A stretch of 64,000 bases of DNA, from assembly GCA_020441905.1 (NCBI GenBank), contig JAGRLG010000030.1, positions 20,970 to 84,969 of the forward strand, given 5' to 3'. Made by a program: the position numbers and the translations under genes. Source of the DNA: Rhodobiaceae bacterium (GTDB lineage Bacteria > Pseudomonadota > Alphaproteobacteria > Rhizobiales > NORP267). How positions within the stretch are numbered: position 1 is the stretch's first letter; every line of letters starts with the position of its first letter. The notes beneath the pieces are model-generated. The model was not told the origin of the DNA and searched no databases. It worked only from the letters and a program-made list of their open reading frames with translations. This document shows positions 1 through 8,804 of the stretch, in pieces.

Positions 1-698
1 CCTTCGAGTGGCTGCGCAAGGCGCCCTGGGGCAATCCGGCCTTTGCCGGCATGTTCCTGTCGCTGGTGCTGTTCGGCTTCCTCGGCGGCATCACCGGCGT
101 CGTGCTGGGTACCGAGCAGATCAACCTGATCATGCACAACACCCTGTATGTGCCGGGGCATTTCCATGCCACGGTGGTGGCGGGCACCACGCTTGCCTTC
201 ATGGCGGTCACCTATCTCGTCGTACCGCTGATCTTCCGCCGTCAGATCATCCTGCCGGGCCTCGCCAAGTGGCAGCCCTATCTGTTCGGCATCGGCGTCG
301 CCGGCATCTCGCTGTTCATGATGGGTGCAGGCACGCTGGGCGTTCCGCGCCGGCACTGGGACATCACCTTTACCGATGCCGCCATTGCCGTCGATATGCC
401 CGGCACGGCGTTCCTGATGATGGGTCTGAACGGTCTGTTCGCGCTACTCGCGGCGACAGGCGGCCTACTCTATATCCTCATCGTCGTCGGTTCGGTGTTG
501 TTCGGCGAGAAGCGGACCGAGGCGGTCGCCAAGGCCAACCCGGTCATCTTCGATGCCAGCACCGTCAAGAGCTACGGCTCGGAGGAACATCCGAAGCTTT
601 CCGGGACTTACGTCCTGGTGGCCATCTTCTTCGTGGCTTTCGTTCTCTACTACTATGTGAACTGGAAGTTCCTGTCGGAAGTCTGGCCGCTTAGCTAA
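1..698 (+). CDS. Haem-copper oxidase superfamily subunit I, C-terminal part (5' end outside window), B-family-like
   Basis: Frame 3 is open from the window edge (FEWLRKAPWGNPAF...). The translation contains HNTLYVPGHFHATVV (helix-X His-x-His haem ligands, with the VPGHFH form I associate with ba3/B-type enzymes) and GVPRRHW. There are several TM helices, including an extra C-terminal one. Stop at 696-698. Confidence 0.85.
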   Translation, partial: FEWLRKAPWGNPAFAGMFLSLVLFGFLGGITGVVLGTEQINLIMHNTLYVPGHFHATVVAGTTLAFMAVTYLVVPLIFRRQIILPGLAKWQPYLFGIGVAGISLFMMGAGTLGVPRRHWDITFTDAAIAVDMPGTAFLMMGLNGLFALLAATGGLLYILIVVGSVLFGEKRTEAVAKANPVIFDASTVKSYGSEEHPKLSGTYVLVAIFFVAFVLYYYVNWKFLSEVWPLS

Positions 699-772: not shown

Positions 773-1642
773 TTGGCCAACCCGATCGCCCTTGTGGCCA
801 ACGTGTTCAAGTTGCGCATCGGTGTGGCGATTACGCTTTGTGCCCTTGCCGGCCTTGCCGTCACACCCGGCCCCGACCTGCCGGTCTGGAAGATCGCTGT
901 CTTGGGCCTGAGCGTTCTTTTTTCGTCCGCCGCCGCGGGTGCCTTCAATCAGTATGTCGAGCGCGATCTCGACGCGCATATGACACGGACCCGCAACCGG
1001 CCCTTCGTCACCGGTGCCCTCGCGCCCGGATGGCCCTGGCCGGCCGTCATTTCCGGCATCCTTGTCGCTTCCGTTGCCGCCGCGGCGCTGGTTCTGAACC
1101 TGGCCGCCGCCGCCTATGTTTTTCTCGGCGCCTTCTTTTACGGCATCGTCTACACCGTATGGCTGAAACGCCGCAGCGCCTGGAACATCGTCATCGGCGG
1201 GCTAGCCGGCAGTTTCGCCGTTCTCGCCGGCGCCGCCGCCATCGATCCGGCGCTAGCGCCCGAGCCTGTCATCCTGGCCGTCGTGCTGTTCCTGTGGACG
1301 CCGCCCCATTTCTGGAGCCTGGCCGCCGCGCTGCGCGACGATTATGCCGCTGCCGGAGTTCCCATGCTCCCGGTCGTCGTCGGTACGCCGCGCGCCTCGC
1401 AGGCTACTCTGGTGCATACGCTCGTCCTCGTGGCGTTGTCGCTGGTGCCGGCGCTGGCCTATGGCCTCGGGCCGATCTATCTTGCGGGTGCCGCCGCCGG
1501 TGGCGCCCTTTTTGTCTGGCGCAGCATTCAGTTTGCCCTGGCGCCGGGACGCATTACCGCAATGTCCAATTTTCACGCGTCGCTGGTTCAGCTAACCCTG
1601 CTCCTGGTCGGCGCCATGCTGGATCGTTGGCTCCTCGCCTGA
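773..1642 (+). CDS. ctaB: Protohaem IX farnesyltransferase (haem O synthase), UbiA family
   Basis: TTG start with GGAG at 762-765. Translation has FNQYVERDLDAHMTRTRNRPFVTG and a multi-TM UbiA-type layout with WTPPHFWSLA. Confidence 0.85.
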   Translation: MANPIALVANVFKLRIGVAITLCALAGLAVTPGPDLPVWKIAVLGLSVLFSSAAAGAFNQYVERDLDAHMTRTRNRPFVTGALAPGWPWPAVISGILVASVAAAALVLNLAAAAYVFLGAFFYGIVYTVWLKRRSAWNIVIGGLAGSFAVLAGAAAIDPALAPEPVILAVVLFLWTPPHFWSLAAALRDDYAAAGVPMLPVVVGTPRASQATLVHTLVLVALSLVPALAYGLGPIYLAGAAAGGALFVWRSIQFALAPGRITAMSNFHASLVQLTLLLVGAMLDRWLLA

Positions 1643-1657: not shown

Positions 1658-2578
1658 ATGCAATTCAGGGCGATTGCCCGCACCGTCTGCTTGGTTGGCC
1701 TGGCACTGGCTCCGCTGGTCGCCGCGGCGGGCGCGTGGGCGGAATCGCCGGCGCTTTCGGGCGGCCATGGCGGCAAGCTGCGGGCCGTGCCAGCGGCTGG
1801 GGCGAAGCCGGTCGACCGGTCTAGCCACCCGGGCGCCGCCGAATTCGATGAAAAGCAGGCTCTGGCAATCAGCCAGGGGGCGATCGGCAACCGGCTTTCC
1901 AATCTGTCCTTCACCGATTCAAATGGGCAGAAGGTCGAGTTGTCCGAATTTCTCGGCAAGCCGCTGATTGTCAGCATGGTCTATACCAGTTGCTACCACA
2001 CTTGCCCGCTGATTACGGAAACCGTCGAACACGCGGTTTCGAATGCCAACGGCACGATCGGCGCCGACAAGCTCAACGTCATTTCCGTCGGGTTCGATAC
2101 CCGCTACGACACGCCGGAGCGCATGCGCTCATTTGCCCGCAATCATGGCGTCAAGGAATCCAATTGGCGGTTGCTGTCGGGTGACGAAGAGACAATAAAG
2201 CAGCTGTCGAGAGAACTCGGCTTCATTTTCTTCCCGTCGTCCAAGGGGTTCGACCATCTGGCCCAGACGACGGTCATCAATAAGGACGGAATCGTCCACG
2301 GACAGGTTTACGGTGCCGATTTTCCGCTGCCGAGCCTGGTCGAACCGATAAAAGCCCTGGTTTTCGGGAGGGAGCGCGATTTTACCACGTTCGAGGGAAT
2401 CGCAAATCGCATACGGTTGTTCTGCACGCTCTACGATCCGCGGGACGACCGCTATTATTTTGACTATTCAGTGTTTATCGGCATCATCATCGGATTTCTG
2501 TGCCTCGGAGGGGTTGGCACGGTCCTGATACGCAACATCTGGCGGCTTTGGCGGAACAGCAAGGCGCACCAGGCGTAA
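1658..2578 (+). CDS. SCO1/SenC-family copper chaperone with signal peptide and extra C-terminal TM anchor
   Basis: AGAGG RBS. N-terminal signal-like segment ends ...AAAGAWA. Thioredoxin-fold CxxxC (YTSCYHTCP) and conserved His (FDHLAQT) are present. The C-terminal LFCTLYDPRDDRYYFDYS is followed by a hydrophobic helix (VFIGIIIGFLCLGGVGTVLI). Confidence 0.85.
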   Translation: MQFRAIARTVCLVGLALAPLVAAAGAWAESPALSGGHGGKLRAVPAAGAKPVDRSSHPGAAEFDEKQALAISQGAIGNRLSNLSFTDSNGQKVELSEFLGKPLIVSMVYTSCYHTCPLITETVEHAVSNANGTIGADKLNVISVGFDTRYDTPERMRSFARNHGVKESNWRLLSGDEETIKQLSRELGFIFFPSSKGFDHLAQTTVINKDGIVHGQVYGADFPLPSLVEPIKALVFGRERDFTTFEGIANRIRLFCTLYDPRDDRYYFDYSVFIGIIIGFLCLGGVGTVLIRNIWRLWRNSKAHQA

Positions 2579-2592
2579 CGGAGTGCAACAAC

Positions 2593-4179
2593 ATGACCTT
2601 CCTTCAGGCACCGATTCGTGCCTTTTTCGCCATTCTCGAGAGCGCTTTGGACCGGATCTTCGGTGCCAAGTTCAACCCGCTGTACCATTTGGGAGCGCTC
2701 GGCTTCTTCATGTACTGGGTGGTCGCGGTCACCGGTATCTACATCTACATTTTCTTCGATACCGGCATCACCGAAGCCTATGATTCGGTCGAATATATGA
2801 CCCATGACCAGTGGTATCTGGCCGGCGTCATGCGCTCATTCCACCGCTATGCCTCGGATGCCATGGTGCTGTTCATGGTGATCCATATCTTCCGCGAATT
2901 CGCCATGGATCGCTATCGCGGAGCGCGCTGGTTCACCTGGGTCACCGGAACCCCGGTCATGATCCTGATCTTTGCCTCGGGTATCACCGGCTACTGGCTG
3001 GTCTGGGACGAACTCGCCCAGTTCATCGCCGTGCGCTCGGCCGAATGGCTGGATTGGCTGCCAATTTTCGGCACCGCCATCGCCGCCAACTTCCTGACCC
3101 CCGATGCGCTGGACGACCGCTTCTTCACCCTGATGATCTTCATCCACATCGCGGCCCCCTTGATCCTGCTGTTCATCTTGTGGATTCACTTGCAGCGCGT
3201 CTCCAATGCGGTCACCAATCCGCCCCGCGCGCTGGCCGTCGGCATGATGGTTGCAATGCTGGTGCTGTCGCTGGTCAAGCCCGCGGTCAGCCATGGCCCC
3301 GCCGATCTTGGCACCGTGGTGTCGGTGCTCGACCTCGACTGGTTCTATCTCGGCATGTATCCGCTGCTCGACTACTGGTCTTCGGGCACGGTATGGGCAA
3401 CGCTCGGCGTGCTTTTGCTGATCCTGCTCCTGCTGCCCTGGCTGCCGCCGATGCGCCGCGCCGCCCCGGCCCTGGTCACCCTGGACCAGTGCAATGGCTG
3501 CACACGCTGCCAGGCGGACTGTCCCTATGCCGCCATCACCATGGTGCCGCGCACGGATGGACTCAAATTCGACCTCCAGGCCGAAGTCAATCCCGACAAA
3601 TGCGTCAGTTGCGGCATTTGCGCCGGGGCCTGTCCGACCGCGACGCCGTTCCGGCGCCGCGCCGATCTGGTTGCCGGCATCGATCTGCCGGATTCCTCGA
3701 TCGCCGACCTTCGCGACCGCATCCATGCCGCCGCTGACCTGCTTGGCGGCAAGACCCGCATTCTGGTCATGTCGTGCCAGCATGCGGCCCGCACCGACGA
3801 TCTGGTCGGGCCGGAAGCGACCGCGGTCAAGGTGCCCTGCATCGGCGCCATTCCGCCGTCCTTTATCGATTACATGCTGAGCGAGGGGCTTGCCGACGGC
3901 GTCATGCTGTCGGGCTGTTCGGAAGGCGAATGCTACAATCGATTTGGCGGCCATTGGACCAAGGCGCGGCTGGAAGGCACCCGCGACCCCAACCTGCGCA
4001 AGCGCGTTCCGCGCGAACGCATAGGCACCTTCTGGGGCAACAAGATGCAAGGCGGCGGGTTGCGCCGTGAAATCGAGCGGTTTGCCGGCTCCCTTGCCGA
4101 TCTTCCCAAACCGCCGCTGCCGGATCGATCCGGTCCCCCTCCCGCTCCCAGCCGGTCGAAGGAGGCGAGCGATGCTTAG
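2593..4179 (+). CDS. Fusion protein: dihaem cytochrome b (bc1/b6 N-terminal type) + 2x[4Fe-4S] ferredoxin + MvhD/FlpD-like hydrogenase Fe-S domain
   Basis: ATG at 2593 with GGAG at 2580-2583. N-terminal part has RSFHRYASDAMVLFMVIHIFREF and FIHIAAPLILLFILWIHL (four His on helices B/D). Then CNGCTRCQADCP and CVSCGICAGACP. Then VMSCQH...VPCIGAIPPSFIDYML..GADGVMLSGCSEGECYNRFGGHW (MvhD/FlpD pattern). Confidence 0.8.
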   Translation: MTFLQAPIRAFFAILESALDRIFGAKFNPLYHLGALGFFMYWVVAVTGIYIYIFFDTGITEAYDSVEYMTHDQWYLAGVMRSFHRYASDAMVLFMVIHIFREFAMDRYRGARWFTWVTGTPVMILIFASGITGYWLVWDELAQFIAVRSAEWLDWLPIFGTAIAANFLTPDALDDRFFTLMIFIHIAAPLILLFILWIHLQRVSNAVTNPPRALAVGMMVAMLVLSLVKPAVSHGPADLGTVVSVLDLDWFYLGMYPLLDYWSSGTVWATLGVLLLILLLLPWLPPMRRAAPALVTLDQCNGCTRCQADCPYAAITMVPRTDGLKFDLQAEVNPDKCVSCGICAGACPTATPFRRRADLVAGIDLPDSSIADLRDRIHAAADLLGGKTRILVMSCQHAARTDDLVGPEATAVKVPCIGAIPPSFIDYMLSEGLADGVMLSGCSEGECYNRFGGHWTKARLEGTRDPNLRKRVPRERIGTFWGNKMQGGGLRREIERFAGSLADLPKPPLPDRSGPPPAPSRSKEASDA

Positions 4180-4678: not shown

Positions 4679-4702
4679 ATCAGCCGGGAAGTGGAGAATC
4701 GC

Positions 4703-5113
4703 ATGGCCTTGGTTGGATGGAAAAAGGAATACGAAACGGGCATTGAGTCCGTCGACGAGGAGCACAAGGAACTGCTTGCGCTGATCAACGAAACCACGGC
4801 AAAGCTGCGCGCCGATTTGCATACGGTGGAGAACATCGAGTCCTATCTTGGTGAGATCCATGCCAAGATTTCGGCCCACTTCGCGCTTGAAGAGCGCTTC
4901 ATGCGTGACGCCAGCTACAGCCATTTGAAGCCGCACAAGGACGATCACGAACGGCTTCTCGATGACCTGCGCCGGATCATGGTGAACTACCGCTCGGGCT
5001 CCTATCTTCAGTTCGAGCAATCCTTGATCCAGCACCTCAACGACTGGTTCATGATCCACTTCACCACGCATGATTCGCTTTTGCACGGTGAACTGGGCGA
5101 TCACCCGCATTGA
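4703..5113 (+). CDS. Bacteriohemerythrin-like di-iron protein
   Basis: ATG at 4703 preceded by GGAG (4693-4696); an alternative GTG lies at 4691. Full ligand pattern is present: VDEEHKELL, HAKISAHFALEE, HKDDHERLL, WFMIHFTTHD. Confidence 0.85.
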   Translation: MALVGWKKEYETGIESVDEEHKELLALINETTAKLRADLHTVENIESYLGEIHAKISAHFALEERFMRDASYSHLKPHKDDHERLLDDLRRIMVNYRSGSYLQFEQSLIQHLNDWFMIHFTTHDSLLHGELGDHPH

Positions 5114-5300: not shown

Positions 5301-5936
5301 ATGACCGGCAGTGGAAACACGCCCGATGTCATCATCTGGGACATGGGCGGCATCCTCTATCGTTTTTTCACCGAAGTGGTGGTCGAGCGCGCCCGGCACG
5401 AAAACTGGCCGCTTGAACGCCTCGCCCTGGGGCCGACGGGGCTGGCGCCTGATCCCGACTATGCTGCCCTGGATCGCGGCGATATCAGCGAACCGGAATA
5501 TGTCAGGCGCCTGGTGGCGGGCCTTGCCCGCCACGGCATCGAATATGAGCCTTATGCCGATGTCGGCCTGGGCGGCAGGGAGCGGGCGGAAACCTGGCCA
5601 CTCGTGGTCAGCCTCGGGCGGATGGGCCGGCGCCAGGTGCTGCTAACCAACGATGCCACGGCCTGGCTGGGCGAGGCATGGTGGGAGGGGTGGAAATACC
5701 GCGACCATTTCGAGGCCATTGTCGACGTCAAGACGATCGGCATCCGTAAGCCGGCGCCCGAGCCTTATCTGGCTTGCACCCGCGCCCTTGGCGTGACGCC
5801 GGACCAATGCATCTTCATAGACGATATGCATGTCAATTGCCTGGGCGCCGAGGCGGTCGGCATGGAAAGCTACTGGTTCGACGTTGCCGATCTGCCAGCC
5901 GCTGTGGCGGGCCTGAACCAGCGGCTGGGCCTCTAG
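5301..5936 (+). CDS. HAD-superfamily hydrolase
   Basis: VIIWDMGGIL N-terminal motif, LLTNDA, and CIFIDD near the C-terminus. Subfamily not assignable. Confidence 0.7.
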   Translation: MTGSGNTPDVIIWDMGGILYRFFTEVVVERARHENWPLERLALGPTGLAPDPDYAALDRGDISEPEYVRRLVAGLARHGIEYEPYADVGLGGRERAETWPLVVSLGRMGRRQVLLTNDATAWLGEAWWEGWKYRDHFEAIVDVKTIGIRKPAPEPYLACTRALGVTPDQCIFIDDMHVNCLGAEAVGMESYWFDVADLPAAVAGLNQRLGL

Positions 5937-6721: not shown

Positions 6722-6797
6722 TGGTGGGCGGTACTGGACTCGAACCAGTGACCCCTGCGATGTGAACACAGTGCTCTACCAACTGAGCTAACCGCCC
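6722..6797 (-). tRNA. tRNA-Val (anticodon CAC), CCA encoded
   Basis: Reverse complement is GGGCGGTTAGCTCAGTTGGTAGAGCACTGTGTTCACATCGCAGGGGTCACTGGTTCGAGTCCAGTACCGCCCACCA. All four stems pair (acceptor 7 bp, D 4 bp, anticodon 5 bp, T 5 bp). Anticodon loop is TTCACAT and T-loop is TTCGAGT. Confidence 0.95.
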
Positions 6798-6914: not shown

Positions 6915-8111
6915 ATGGCCAAAACCACATCCTGGTGGCATGTCCTCATCCTGCTGATCGCCGGTGTGGCAATATCCCTCCAGATCGGAAAAGTGCCCGG
7001 CGCGGTGCCGGTGCTCAAGGAAGAGCTGTCGATCAGCCTGTTCGCTGCCGGCTGGGTCATATCAATTTTCAATCTGATCGCGGCGACAAGCGGAATCGCC
7101 CTTGGCGGCATAGCCGACAAGTTCGGCCAGCACCGCACCGTCGTCTTTGGCCTCGTGCTTACGGCTCTGGCGGCCATCCTCGGCGCCTTCGCCACCGGAC
7201 CGGCAAGCCTCCTCGTCACCCGCGCCCTGGAAGGCTTCGGCTTCGTCGTCGCCACGGTATCGATTCCAATGCTGATGACCGCAGTGGCGGCGTCGCGCGA
7301 TCGCGACCTGGTCCTTGGCCTGTGGAGCGTCTACATGCCCATGGGCACCGGCATGATGATGCTCATCGGTGCGCCGCTGCTCGATATTACCGGCTGGCGC
7401 GGCTTGTGGTGGCTGACGGCCATCATCATCCTCGGCGTCTGCGTCGCGGTCTATCGCGTCGCCGGCCGCGCCGTCACCAGCCTGCCGCCCCACACGCGCC
7501 CGCGCATGCGCGACATCACTCAGGTGGCTACCCGGCGCGGCCCCCTCATGCTGGCGCTGCTGTTCTGCTGCTATGCCGGCATGTTCATGGCCGTGCTCGG
7601 TTTCCTGCCCTATATCCTGGTCGAGGTCGATGGGCTTTCCAAGCCGCTGGCGGCTACCTTTGGCGCGGTGGCGGTGCTGGCCAATGTCGTCGGCAATCTG
7701 CTCGGCGCCTTCGCCCTTCACCACAATGCCGACCGCCGCGTCATGATGTTGATCGGCAACCTGTCGATGGCCGTCGGGGCCACCCTGGCGATGATGGATT
7801 TCCACCCCTATATCCGCGTCTATGGCGGTGCGCTGCTGGCGCTTGGCGGCGGCTGGATTCCGAGCACCCTGTTCACGCTGGCGCCGGTGCATGCGCCGCG
7901 CATCCAGCAACTGTCGAGCGTCACCGGACTGATGCAGCAGGGCGCCGCCATCGGCATGCTGCTGATGCCGCCGGCCGTTGCCGCCATCGTCGGCTGGTTC
8001 GGTACCTGGAGTGCCGCCGTACCCTTCGCATGGGCGGTGGCCCTGGTCGGCGTCTACGCCACCATCCAGCTCACGCGCTCGGACAGTCTCGGTTCGCAGG
8101 TGCCGGCCTGA
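6915..8111 (+). CDS. MFS transporter
   Basis: About 12 hydrophobic helices in a 398-aa ORF, with a typical MFS loop (GGIADKFGQHRT). Substrate unknown. Confidence 0.8.
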   Translation: MAKTTSWWHVLILLIAGVAISLQIGKVPGAVPVLKEELSISLFAAGWVISIFNLIAATSGIALGGIADKFGQHRTVVFGLVLTALAAILGAFATGPASLLVTRALEGFGFVVATVSIPMLMTAVAASRDRDLVLGLWSVYMPMGTGMMMLIGAPLLDITGWRGLWWLTAIIILGVCVAVYRVAGRAVTSLPPHTRPRMRDITQVATRRGPLMLALLFCCYAGMFMAVLGFLPYILVEVDGLSKPLAATFGAVAVLANVVGNLLGAFALHHNADRRVMMLIGNLSMAVGATLAMMDFHPYIRVYGGALLALGGGWIPSTLFTLAPVHAPRIQQLSSVTGLMQQGAAIGMLLMPPAVAAIVGWFGTWSAAVPFAWAVALVGVYATIQLTRSDSLGSQVPA

Positions 8112-8117
8112 ATCGGC

Positions 8118-8804
8118 TCAGCGCGCCAGCGGCCCCAGCAGGCGTTCCAGTTCGGGCATCAGGGCGTCGAAATGCGAAATCACCGCATCCGGCGCGAATG
8201 TCGAGATATGGCGGTCGGTATAGCCGAAGGTGACCCCGATCACCGGCAGGCCGGCCGAGCGCGCGGCGCGCACGTCGGTCTCGCTGTCGCCCACCATGAC
8301 CGCCTGGCCCGCTTGCGCGCCAATCCGCTCCAGAGTTTGCAGCAGGTGTCGGCCATCGGGTTTGTGCACGGCGAATGTGTCGCCTCCGGCGACTGCGTCG
8401 AAATAGTCCAAGAGGTCGAGTGCGCGCAGCAAGTGCAGGGAGCTGTGCTCGCGTTTGTTGGTGCAGACCGCCAGTTTCGCCCCCGACGTCTTGAGGGCGC
8501 GCAGCATTTCGGTGACACCGGGAAAGACGCGGCTTTCGCGGGCAATATTGTCGGCGTAATAGCGCAGGAAACGGTCGAGCAACTGATCGAGAAGCGCGTC
8601 GTCGTAAATTTGCCCGGAAGCCTCCATGCCGCGCTCGATCAGCGCCCGCGCGCCCATGCCGATGAGATGGCGCACCTTATCCGGCGCGATCGTCGGCGCG
8701 CCGATGCCCTCCAGCACGAAATTGAGCGCCAGAGTCAGGTCGGGCGCGGTGTCGGCCAGCGTGCCGTCGAGGTCGAACAGGATGGCGGGCGCGGTGTTGG
8801 TCAT
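8118..8804 (-). CDS. gph: Phosphoglycolate phosphatase-like HAD hydrolase
   Basis: Start taken at MTNTAPAILFDLDGTLADTAPDL (DxDGT motif I). CTNK and VMVGDSETDV motifs are present. The longer ORF start at 8840 is possible. Confidence 0.75.
   Translation of the reverse strand: MTNTAPAILFDLDGTLADTAPDLTLALNFVLEGIGAPTIAPDKVRHLIGMGARALIERGMEASGQIYDDALLDQLLDRFLRYYADNIARESRVFPGVTEMLRALKTSGAKLAVCTNKREHSSLHLLRALDLLDYFDAVAGGDTFAVHKPDGRHLLQTLERIGAQAGQAVMVGDSETDVRAARSAGLPVIGVTFGYTDRHISTFAPDAVISHFDALMPELERLLGPLAR

Follow-up and report, generated by a model that had tools for sequence, protein, structure and literature searches.

Background

Several described membrane systems join two haems, placed across the membrane, to cytoplasmic iron-sulfur (Fe-S) clusters, namely Qmo, HdrDE, DsrMK and NarGHI, and in others (NOX, FRE and STEAP proteins, Dcytb and MsrQ-Fre) a cytoplasmic reductant feeds b haems that carry electrons outwards. 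In this work we analyze a gene of the type that we call cybFeS, located in a stretch of 64,000 nucleotides (nt), hereafter the window, from the genome of an alphaproteobacterium (Rhodobiaceae bacterium, GenBank assembly GCA_020441905.1, contig JAGRLG010000030.1, positions 20,970 to 84,969 of the forward strand). Its product joins in a single polypeptide a cytochrome b related to b6, a ferredoxin-like domain with two [4Fe-4S] motifs and an MvhD/FlpD-like domain, and it is very probably a transmembrane electron-transfer subunit linked to eNOR, a nitric oxide (NO) reductase. The eNOR enzyme was shown to be a true NO reductase in 2024 and belongs to the most frequent NO reductases of environmental data sets (PMC11214002); that of Rhodothermus marinus is a proven NO reductase that is unable to reduce O2 (PMC11214002). 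We found no published description of the cybFeS protein in the literature beyond an uncommented domain listing for the Chloroflexi protein RME88945.1, and the eNOR papers make no mention of a cytochrome b-Fe-S-MvhD protein. Databases carry its relatives under generic names such as "cytochrome b N-terminal domain-containing protein" or "hydrogenase iron-sulfur subunit".

The resemblance of the window protein to these systems lies in their general layout. Its cytochrome b is of the bc type, a different superfamily from that of QmoC, HdrE, DsrM and NarI, and it is accompanied by a periplasmic subunit. Its membrane fold is also unrelated to those of NOX, FRE, STEAP, Dcytb and MsrQ-Fre, and its input module is made of Fe-S and MvhD domains rather than of a flavoprotein, although a variant from the Burkholderiales has the same layout as these reductases. 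The cytoplasmic part finds a close counterpart in the C-terminus of HdrA2, where a tandem 2x[4Fe-4S] domain is likewise followed by an MvhD-type domain, in a connector role in both cases. Unlike in Mvh/Hdr systems, however, the MvhD-type domain of the window sits on a membrane cytochrome, and no HdrA flavoprotein, HdrBC or hydrogenase was seen in the loci examined. The first Cys motif of MvhD, which we take to be CxxC, is represented by a single Cys in the window protein. A previous sequence-only reading of this DNA had likened the protein to HdrDE and DsrMK, and the analogy holds for the logic of the design, but not for its parts: the cytochrome is of the bc1/b6 type instead of the NarI/HdrE type, no Hdr or hydrogenase gene lies nearby, and Pfam finds neither a CCG domain (PF02754) in the protein or its operon nor a catalytic subunit.

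A b6-type cytochrome b with cytoplasmic Fe-S domains

The three domains of the protein are all recognized by Pfam above the gathering score: Cytochrome_B at residues 26-201 (70.9 bits, cut-off 27.2), the dicluster family Fer4_7 (PF12838) at residues 299-350 (38.8 bits, cut-off 27) and FlpD (PF02662) at residues 405-503 (45.7 bits, cut-off 22.3). A PDB profile search matches the first part to b6 (E = 7e-25), and NCBIfam aligns residues 292-504 with residues 571-771 of HdrA2, that is, with the ferredoxin and MvhD part of its C-terminus. Two Hx13H pairs on helices B and D provide the haem ligands, H84 (RSFH) and H185 (FIHIA) for the outer haem, and H98 (VIHIF) and H199 (WIHL) for the inner one. 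These four His are invariant in 77 close and 49 divergent (24-39% identity) homologues, and so are the eight Cys of CNGCTRCQADCP and CVSCGICAGACP, which make up the two CxxCxxCxxxCP motifs (C300/303/306/310-P311 and C337/340/343/347-P348). Four further Cys, C395, C416, C442 and C447, are 97-100% conserved in the 77 close homologues and are the putative ligands of a [2Fe-2S] cluster, the last three aligning to Cys of solved MvhD chains. Such a pattern of domains and ligands is far beyond chance expectation. We therefore place the protein in the cytochrome b/b6 superfamily (PF00033), with genuine MvhD-type and ferredoxin-type domains, and the four His, two Cys motifs and MvhD/FlpD domain that had been picked out from the sequence alone are upheld, both by the Pfam matches and by the conservation of their ligands in homologues.

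Structure prediction leads to the same assignment. A single-sequence AlphaFold run was unusable, with a predicted local distance difference test (pLDDT) of 44, and the model used here was built from a 45-sequence alignment (pLDDT 75.9, predicted template modelling score 0.73). It places six transmembrane helices ahead of well-predicted Fe-S domains. In Foldseek, about 290 residues superpose on the cytochrome b of bc1 complexes and about 200 on b6, with a probability of 1.00 and target-normalized TM-scores of 0.50-0.66 against cytochrome b structures. The protein shares with b6 and cytochrome b (PF00033) the fold of helices A-F, the two Hx13H pairs and the two stacked b haems, together with the motifs RSxHRY and GYxLxWD and a cytoplasmic N-terminus. 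The ef loop, which resembles PEWY, carries a conserved L-D249-W250-F-Y252 (LDWFY) motif, of which D249-W250-x-Y252 is invariant in close homologues, in a stretch (residues 233-260) that AlphaFold models with pLDDT below 50. The motif presumably lies where PEWY lies in cytochrome b.

The six transmembrane helices and the distribution of Lys and Arg determine the predicted topology. Arg and Lys are concentrated in two loops (B-C and D-E) and behind helix F, and the A-B, C-D and E-F loops are acidic or neutral, which places the N-terminus and the Fe-S domains, as predicted, in the cytoplasm. The cytoplasmic location that the sequence-only reading had assumed for the Fe-S part is thereby supported.

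Given these similarities, the gene might be thought to belong to a canonical bc1 or b6f complex, or to a hydrogenase or heterodisulfide reductase system, as the Pfam and PDB matches to b6 and MvhD and database names like the hydrogenase label quoted above would suggest. We regard this as scarcely credible. Rieske/cytochrome b complexes differ from the window protein, which has six helices, lacks the Cys for haem cn, bears C-terminal cytoplasmic Fe-S domains and is encoded in an NO reductase operon. Neither Rieske, cytochrome c1/f nor subunit IV partners occur among the conserved families or annotated genes of the loci examined, hydrogenase and Hdr genes are equally missing from these operons, and the NCBIfam scores lie well below the respective cut-offs (83 vs 325 for b6, 66 vs 1100 for HdrA2).

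Association with eNOR-type nitric oxide reductases

A scan of one genome per GTDB species yielded 507 relatives of the gene, and neighbors were counted in the best 80 of these 507 loci. The gene for a small orphan protein is present in 78 of them, that of a SCO-type copper protein in 76, COX1 in 70, a hemerythrin gene in 66 and ctaB in 58, and most missing neighbors are accounted for by contig ends. Complete loci start with a CuA-type subunit II, in which the CuA motif reads CNEFCGVGHHTM in locus L002. Subunit I of the same locus reads WWGMGHSSQQINV, with a Gln four residues past the first metal-ligand His, at the position of the cross-linked Tyr of oxygen reductases. This signature, GH[SAG][SA]QQ, was found in all 72 readable subunits I that adjoin close homologues of the gene; HH and HxH are present as well. 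An enzyme is diagnosed as eNOR by a Gln at the position of the cross-linked Tyr, and in sNOR the residue there is Asn (PMC8756737, Table A4). The occurrence of the signature in every one of the 72 readable adjacent subunits I identifies the neighboring "oxidase" as eNOR. In the window itself only the C-terminal third of subunit I is encoded, which shares 56-81% identity with the corresponding end of subunit I in syntenic loci; the signature would lie upstream of base 1, and we infer from synteny that the haem-copper enzyme of the window is also of the eNOR type. The enzyme beside the gene, formerly read as an oxidase, is hence reassigned to a family of NO reductases. The sNOR arrangement (norSY-senC-orf1) was considered for the neighboring enzyme as well and was rejected, since the residue at the Tyr position is Gln and not Asn.

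The association is also seen from the side of the enzyme. An eNOR subunit I alignment headed by a distant Turneriella sequence was used for a reverse search, which returned 80 loci, all with the Gln signature, from Spirochaetota, SAR324, Nitrospirota, Nitrospinota, Chloroflexota, Myxococcota, Bacteroidota and Alpha-, Beta- and Gammaproteobacteria. Among the eNOR loci with at least 6 kilobases (kb) downstream of subunit I, 53 of 55 (about 96%) contain the cytochrome b gene, and it stands beside eNOR in metagenome-assembled genomes (MAGs) of Rhodothermales too. The link to eNOR is further supported by distant loci in which denitrification genes are close by. Thus, in L084 (CP002959.1, Turneriella), genes for a Crp/Fnr regulator, a NirK-cytochrome c fusion, a NirV-like protein, SCO and NnrS come after the operon. 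In L085, the gene comes after crp/fnr and beside ctaA, facing genes for NirS, a cupredoxin, SCO, CtaB and COX1. The association with eNOR is therefore strong in both directions, but it is not absolute. The cytochrome b gene is missing from the eNOR locus of a Chloroflexi MAG (L108, 12693-18929), where ctaB is followed by genes for a cytochrome c, a 222-aa hemerythrin-domain protein, a cytochrome c with two haems and a molybdopterin oxidoreductase of 1,233 aa; a Crp/Fnr gene lies upstream in this locus. Conversely, a cytochrome c-fused variant of the protein (P0207) adjoins a haem-copper oxidase (HCO) that reads GHPLVY and keeps the cross-link Tyr (L173, 3387-7374, and also L174 and L175). That HCO resembles a B-family O2 reductase, and the module is therefore not exclusive to eNOR. 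In distant loci, short open reading frames of 52-66 aa were also noted immediately before the gene of eNOR subunit II, and in the interval that separates subunit I from the cytochrome b gene (5389-5589 and 7791-7949 in L084, 5322-5501 in L184). These may encode small membrane subunits.

The presence of haem biosynthesis genes in these operons raises the question of whether the protein serves as an alternative haem A or As synthase, or as an electron donor to CtaA. The gene is near ctaB and, in L085, beside ctaA; eNOR uses haem As and many eNOR operons hold CtaA (PMC11214002), and a ferredoxin is used by mitochondrial Cox15. Nonetheless, CtaA is found in the same operons as the gene in Turneriella, in Burkholderiales and in L085, which means that the two are not complementary, and on this ground an alternative haem A synthase was rejected. 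Both haem sites are moreover bis-His, as in electron-transfer cytochromes b, and neither the periplasmic subunit nor the cytochrome c-fused variants would be explained. A role in haem synthesis is thus very improbable.

Far from being an oddity of one aerobic alphaproteobacterium, the gene belongs to a large family that spans many phyla. Besides the 507 GTDB-species relatives, an exhaustive search of 1.84 billion cluster representatives gave 3,729 clusters (at 50% identity) with E <= 1e-3, of which 541 have E <= 1e-30. The family extends over Alpha-, Beta- and Gammaproteobacteria, Spirochaetota, Rhodothermales, Nitrospirota, Nitrospinota, Chloroflexota, Myxococcota and SAR324.

A periplasmic subunit and interchangeable cytoplasmic modules

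The orphan protein encoded after cybFeS begins with a transmembrane helix. This is followed by a domain of about 130 aa, in which two Cys are conserved and the motifs CxRxR and PxGxxxDG occur. It gave no sequence match in Pfam (searched up to E = 10 with 14 orphan-domain sequences), NCBIfam or PDB. In many 687-736-aa homologues of the cytochrome b protein, and in many lineages, 170 aa plainly homologous to the orphan are fused in frame at the C-terminus, and this extension retains the transmembrane helix, the two Cys, CxRxR, the DG and PxGxxxDG. Because of these fusions we regard the orphan, already proposed as a partner on sequence grounds, as a real subunit of the module. Of the diverse eNOR loci, 62 have the cytochrome b gene; the orphan is present in 60 of these, and SCO in 58. 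Its domain is predicted to be periplasmic, since in the fusions a seventh transmembrane helix comes after the cytoplasmic MvhD domain, and the conserved Cys pair would suit that location.

At the other end of the protein, the cytoplasmic module can be exchanged. In at least 120 full-length 90%-identity clusters, mostly from Burkholderiales, the cytochrome b is followed by Fer2, FAD_binding_6 and NAD_binding_1 domains, with the [2Fe-2S] domain directly after helix F. This NAD(P)H variant sits exactly between SCO and the orphan (L171, L184), in an arrangement that can be written SCO-[cyt b-X]-orphan, and the flanking SCO and orphan proteins are 36% and 39% identical to those of the window. Its cytochrome b is 52-55% identical to that of the window, as compared with 31-35% for the Fe-S forms of other phyla. 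In P0207 and P0253 a cytochrome c lies C-terminal to the orphan domain, and P0207, in which the PEWY-like motif is altered to ADPFY, was found on five contigs. P0205 and P0250 combine cytochrome b and orphan without a cytoplasmic redox module. In P0264, a single cluster representative, the cytochrome b is fused to an HCO subunit-I-like protein, and in L185 cybFeS is translationally coupled to an HCO-like gene through a 4-nt overlap. These HCO-like sequences belong to a second subunit I-like family, here COX1b, of 475-498 aa with the motif GGGHVLQ[YF], encoded directly after cybFeS and without an adjoining subunit II. Its members retain HxH, the first CuB His and the His of the low-spin haem, whereas IYY, IYL or AYL stands at the two-His CuB position of eNOR. 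Other 50%-identity cluster representatives (P0141, P0174, P0180, P0208 and P0252) turned out to be frameshifted gene calls with Arg/Pro/Ala-rich tails and were discarded; architecture counts in libraries of this kind are inflated by sequencing errors.

Direction and acceptor of electron flow

Reductases of the MmoC/E3 class pass electrons from NAD(P)H to FAD, then to a [2Fe-2S] cluster and finally to their acceptor. Since the [2Fe-2S] domain of the NAD(P)H variant comes directly after helix F, it is turned towards the inner haem. Position and phylogeny make the Fe-S/MvhD module of the window protein the equivalent of this reductase module, and for this reason it would most simply be read as the electron input, with the MvhD domain as its distal docking point. 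The sequence-only reading had left partner and direction open; the module swaps now point from the cytoplasm to the haems, and the transmembrane electron wire that it had offered as one of two options has become the leading model. On balance, and with moderate confidence, we favor a flow of electrons from the cytoplasm to the outside. A cytoplasmic reductant would dock at the MvhD end, and its electrons would travel from the [2Fe-2S] cluster through the two [4Fe-4S] clusters to the inner and then the outer haem. They would leave at the periplasmic face and feed the CuA side of eNOR for the reduction of NO, with the hemerythrin probably shielding or servicing the exposed Fe-S domain.

That the acceptor is eNOR in turnover, and not its copper during assembly, is a tentative choice that falls a little short of an even bet, and we rank it slightly above maturation. 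Support for the enzyme as the acceptor may be seen in the fusion of the cytochrome b to an HCO in P0264 and in the coupling of the two genes in L185. The P0207-type fusion to a cytochrome c, beside a CuA-containing HCO, would likewise favor turnover, as would the Chloroflexi locus L108, in which c-type cytochromes and a molybdopterin protein take the place of the gene.

The same wire could instead work as a maturation reductase, exporting cytoplasmic electrons to reduce Cu(II) to Cu(I) on or for the SCO chaperone, or else keeping the thiols of SCO or CuA reduced, so that the CuA of eNOR, and possibly its active-site metal, are assembled under micro-oxic, NO-rich conditions. The protein would then be a bacterial counterpart of the Dcytb, FRE and STEAP metalloreductases and a functional parallel to CcoG and CrpH. 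In 76 of 80 and in 58 of 62 loci the gene comes after SCO, at a distance of 14 nt in the window; it lies among the assembly genes ctaB, sco, PCuAC, CtaG and ctaA; and the SCO-[cyt b-X]-orphan triad is kept through the swaps of the cytoplasmic module. There is also a call for an SCO-cytochrome b fusion (P0247), although its contig comes from long reads and a frameshift may have produced the call. CcoG offers a precedent as a cupric reductase encoded after the cbb3 genes, with two [4Fe-4S] clusters and a periplasmic immunoglobulin-like C-terminal domain (PMC7558416), and CrpH another as a PepSY_TM protein that contains haem and acts in support of haem-copper oxidase function (PMC13038864), while purified eNOR needs no third subunit (PMC11214002). 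CcoG (FixG) indeed resembles the window protein in being a membrane protein encoded with a haem-copper enzyme, with two cytoplasmic [4Fe-4S] clusters and a C-terminal periplasmic domain (of beta type in CcoG; PMC7558416). In contrast to the window protein, CcoG has no haems and reduces copper on the cytoplasmic side. Pfam, up to E = 10, finds no CcoG/FixG_C homology for the protein or for 14 orphan-domain sequences, so that the likeness is architectural only, and neither FixG_C nor another Pfam family is recognizable in the orphan. The P0264 fusion and the L185 coupling would be unusual for an assembly factor, the cytochrome c-fused variant looks like a respiratory relay, and ordinary A-, B- and C-type oxidases assemble their CuA without such a module. 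We hold maturation to be rather unlikely.

The ef loop suggests yet another possibility, in which quinol is oxidized at a Qo-like pocket near the outer haem, as part of a loop or of a bifurcation, and electrons flow from the periplasm to the cytoplasm. One electron would reach SCO-bound copper or CuA and then NO, and the other would pass through the haems and the Fe-S/MvhD module to a cytoplasmic acceptor. This scheme, the second option of the sequence-only reading, would follow the logic of NarI-NarH, HdrDE or DsrMK. The invariant D249-W250-x-Y252 at what we take to be the PEWY position, the retention of helices E and F, and the module-less P0205 and P0250, for which quinol could be the donor, all fit this scheme. 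NAD(P)H-producing Rieske/cytochrome b complexes have been proposed for anammox bacteria (PMC12954380), and these similarly combine a bc-type cytochrome b with low-potential cytoplasmic modules and nitrogen-oxide chemistry. The anammox complexes, however, keep their Rieske proteins and multihaem c subunits, and their function is itself a proposal. In the 160 loci no Rieske protein or other obvious high-potential one-electron acceptor was found. Furthermore, the swapped-in Fer2-FAD-NAD module is of an NAD(P)H-oxidizing class, there is no CCG or Hdr-type catalytic domain, the sole conserved candidate for a cytoplasmic acceptor is a clade-restricted hemerythrin, and the PEWY-like motif is changed to ADPFY in P0207. 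Inward flow from quinol is hence distinctly unlikely.

Several observations weigh against outward electron supply to eNOR. No RNA runs containing the window stretch were found. The R. marinus eNOR shows two subunits on sodium dodecyl sulfate-polyacrylamide gel electrophoresis and is active with tetramethyl-p-phenylenediamine (TMPD)/ascorbate (bioRxiv 10.1101/2021.10.15.464467; PMC11214002), from which it follows that a stable complex is not needed for activity. In proteobacteria the gene follows the assembly genes ctaB and sco and not the structural genes, and its tight adjacency to SCO suits maturation at least as well. The PEWY-like loop hints at a quinol site, which would be needless in a pure wire. 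One copy, from Nitrospinota, is solitary and lacks a haem-copper oxidase within 9 kb, and in L185 there is no eNOR within 10 kb of the gene. The NAD(P)H and Fe-S types co-occur in Burkholderiales and are therefore not simple substitutes for each other. Finally, the cytochrome b part of P0160, which carries a flavodoxin-FAD-NAD module, is an exact copy of the neighboring gene, and this diflavin fusion, which may be a recent duplication or an assembly artefact, was set aside. At that locus (L170), an exact direct repeat of at least 300 nt spans 1911-2210 and 7935-8234, and P0160 and cybFeS share 269 aa at 100% identity.

A bolder version of electron supply would have eNOR bypass the cytochrome c pool altogether, through a supercomplex with a Rieske-less cytochrome b module, the periplasmic subunit and a redox-active SCO, in which a cytoplasmic reductant or bifurcated quinol drives the reduction of NO. 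The reductant would be NAD(P)H in Burkholderiales and a donor docked on the Fe-S/MvhD module in other groups; in the quinol version, bifurcation would send electrons both to NO and to a cytoplasmic acceptor of low potential. Such a supercomplex is, in our estimate, unlikely, but if true it would constitute a new type of respiratory complex and recast the bioenergetics of roughly half of environmental NO reductases.

The operon and its surroundings in the window

The genes between 51 and 5113 are co-directional (Table 1), with gaps of 75, 15 and 14 nt, then an 8-nt overlap and then 12 nt. A GGAG lies 9 nt before the ATG of cybFeS; an alternative GTG start at 2500 was rejected, as the homologues start at the Met encoded at 2593. 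The SCO protein conserves C112, C116 and H200. At residues 255-300 it bears a conserved C-terminal extension, CTxYDPxxxRYxFDYS followed by a transmembrane helix, which is also present in the SCO beside the NAD(P)H-type cytochrome b of L171, while the Turneriella SCO (209 aa) is too short to contain it.

The bacteriohemerythrin at the end of the operon keeps its His, Glu and Asp ligand residues and is cytoplasmic. It is a member of the operon, but specific to one clade: it occurs in 37 of the 62 diverse eNOR loci with the cytochrome b gene and is confined to the alpha/gamma clade. By analogy with hemerythrins known to protect Fe-S enzymes (PMC4257069), it may protect exposed clusters or buffer NO or O2.

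No nir, nnrS, crp or ctaA homologues were found elsewhere in the 64-kb window. Beyond the operon, between 5301 and 13004, lie housekeeping-type genes, among them a HAD hydrolase by Pfam and, judged from their translations, a major facilitator superfamily transporter, a phosphatase, a 582-aa chemotaxis-type signaling protein, ribose-5-phosphate isomerase and glutathione reductase.

Table 1. Positions of the features discussed (window numbering, except where a locus is named)
Feature	Position	Strand	Evidence or remark
Haem-copper subunit I, C-terminal 215 aa (N-terminus outside window)	51-698	+	Pfam COX1
Haem O synthase (CtaB/CyoE)	773-1642	+	TIGR01473, 253 bits vs cut-off 210
SCO1/SenC-type copper protein, signal peptide, CxxxC + His	1658-2578	+	Pfam SCO1-SenC
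cybFeS-type gene	2593-4179	+	528 codons, TAG stop at 4177-4179
Cytochrome b domain, aa 1-292, six transmembrane helices A-F	2593-3468	+	Pfam, alignments, AlphaFold, Foldseek
Ferredoxin-like domain, aa 296-351, two [4Fe-4S] motifs	3478-3645	+	Pfam, alignments
MvhD/FlpD-like domain, aa 385-505	3745-4107	+	Pfam FlpD; PDB profile matches to MvhD chains 9sw2_D, 5odc_D
Orphan subunit, 168 aa	4172-4678	+	Start overlaps cytochrome b stop by 8 nt, preceded by AAGGAGG
Bacteriohemerythrin	4691-5113	+	NF033749, 84.6 bits (cut-off 84); TIGR02481
tRNA-Val (anticodon CAC)	6722-6797	-	Sole RNA gene detected in 64-kb window
COX1b loci	L184 14319-15791; L185 13910-15337; L170 4020-5516; L105 6367-7854		Fused in P0264

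Conclusions

The cybFeS gene and its neighbors probably represent a large, conserved and uncharacterized accessory system of eNOR, acting either in electron supply or as a maturation partner. A conserved membrane partner with multiple cofactors, found in about 96% of the sampled eNOR loci, is an obvious missing component of this enzyme, and cultured hosts exist in Turneriella (CP002959.1), Pelagibius marinus, Marivita sp. S2033 and Defluviimonas sp. D31. The organism of the window is present in activated-sludge and wastewater metagenomes, and the system provides a handle on the formation of nitrous oxide (N2O) by aerobic and micro-oxic denitrifiers, including those of wastewater sludge. More generally, the reuse of a b6-type scaffold without a Rieske protein and with interchangeable cytoplasmic inputs bears on how bc complexes and transmembrane electron conduits have evolved.

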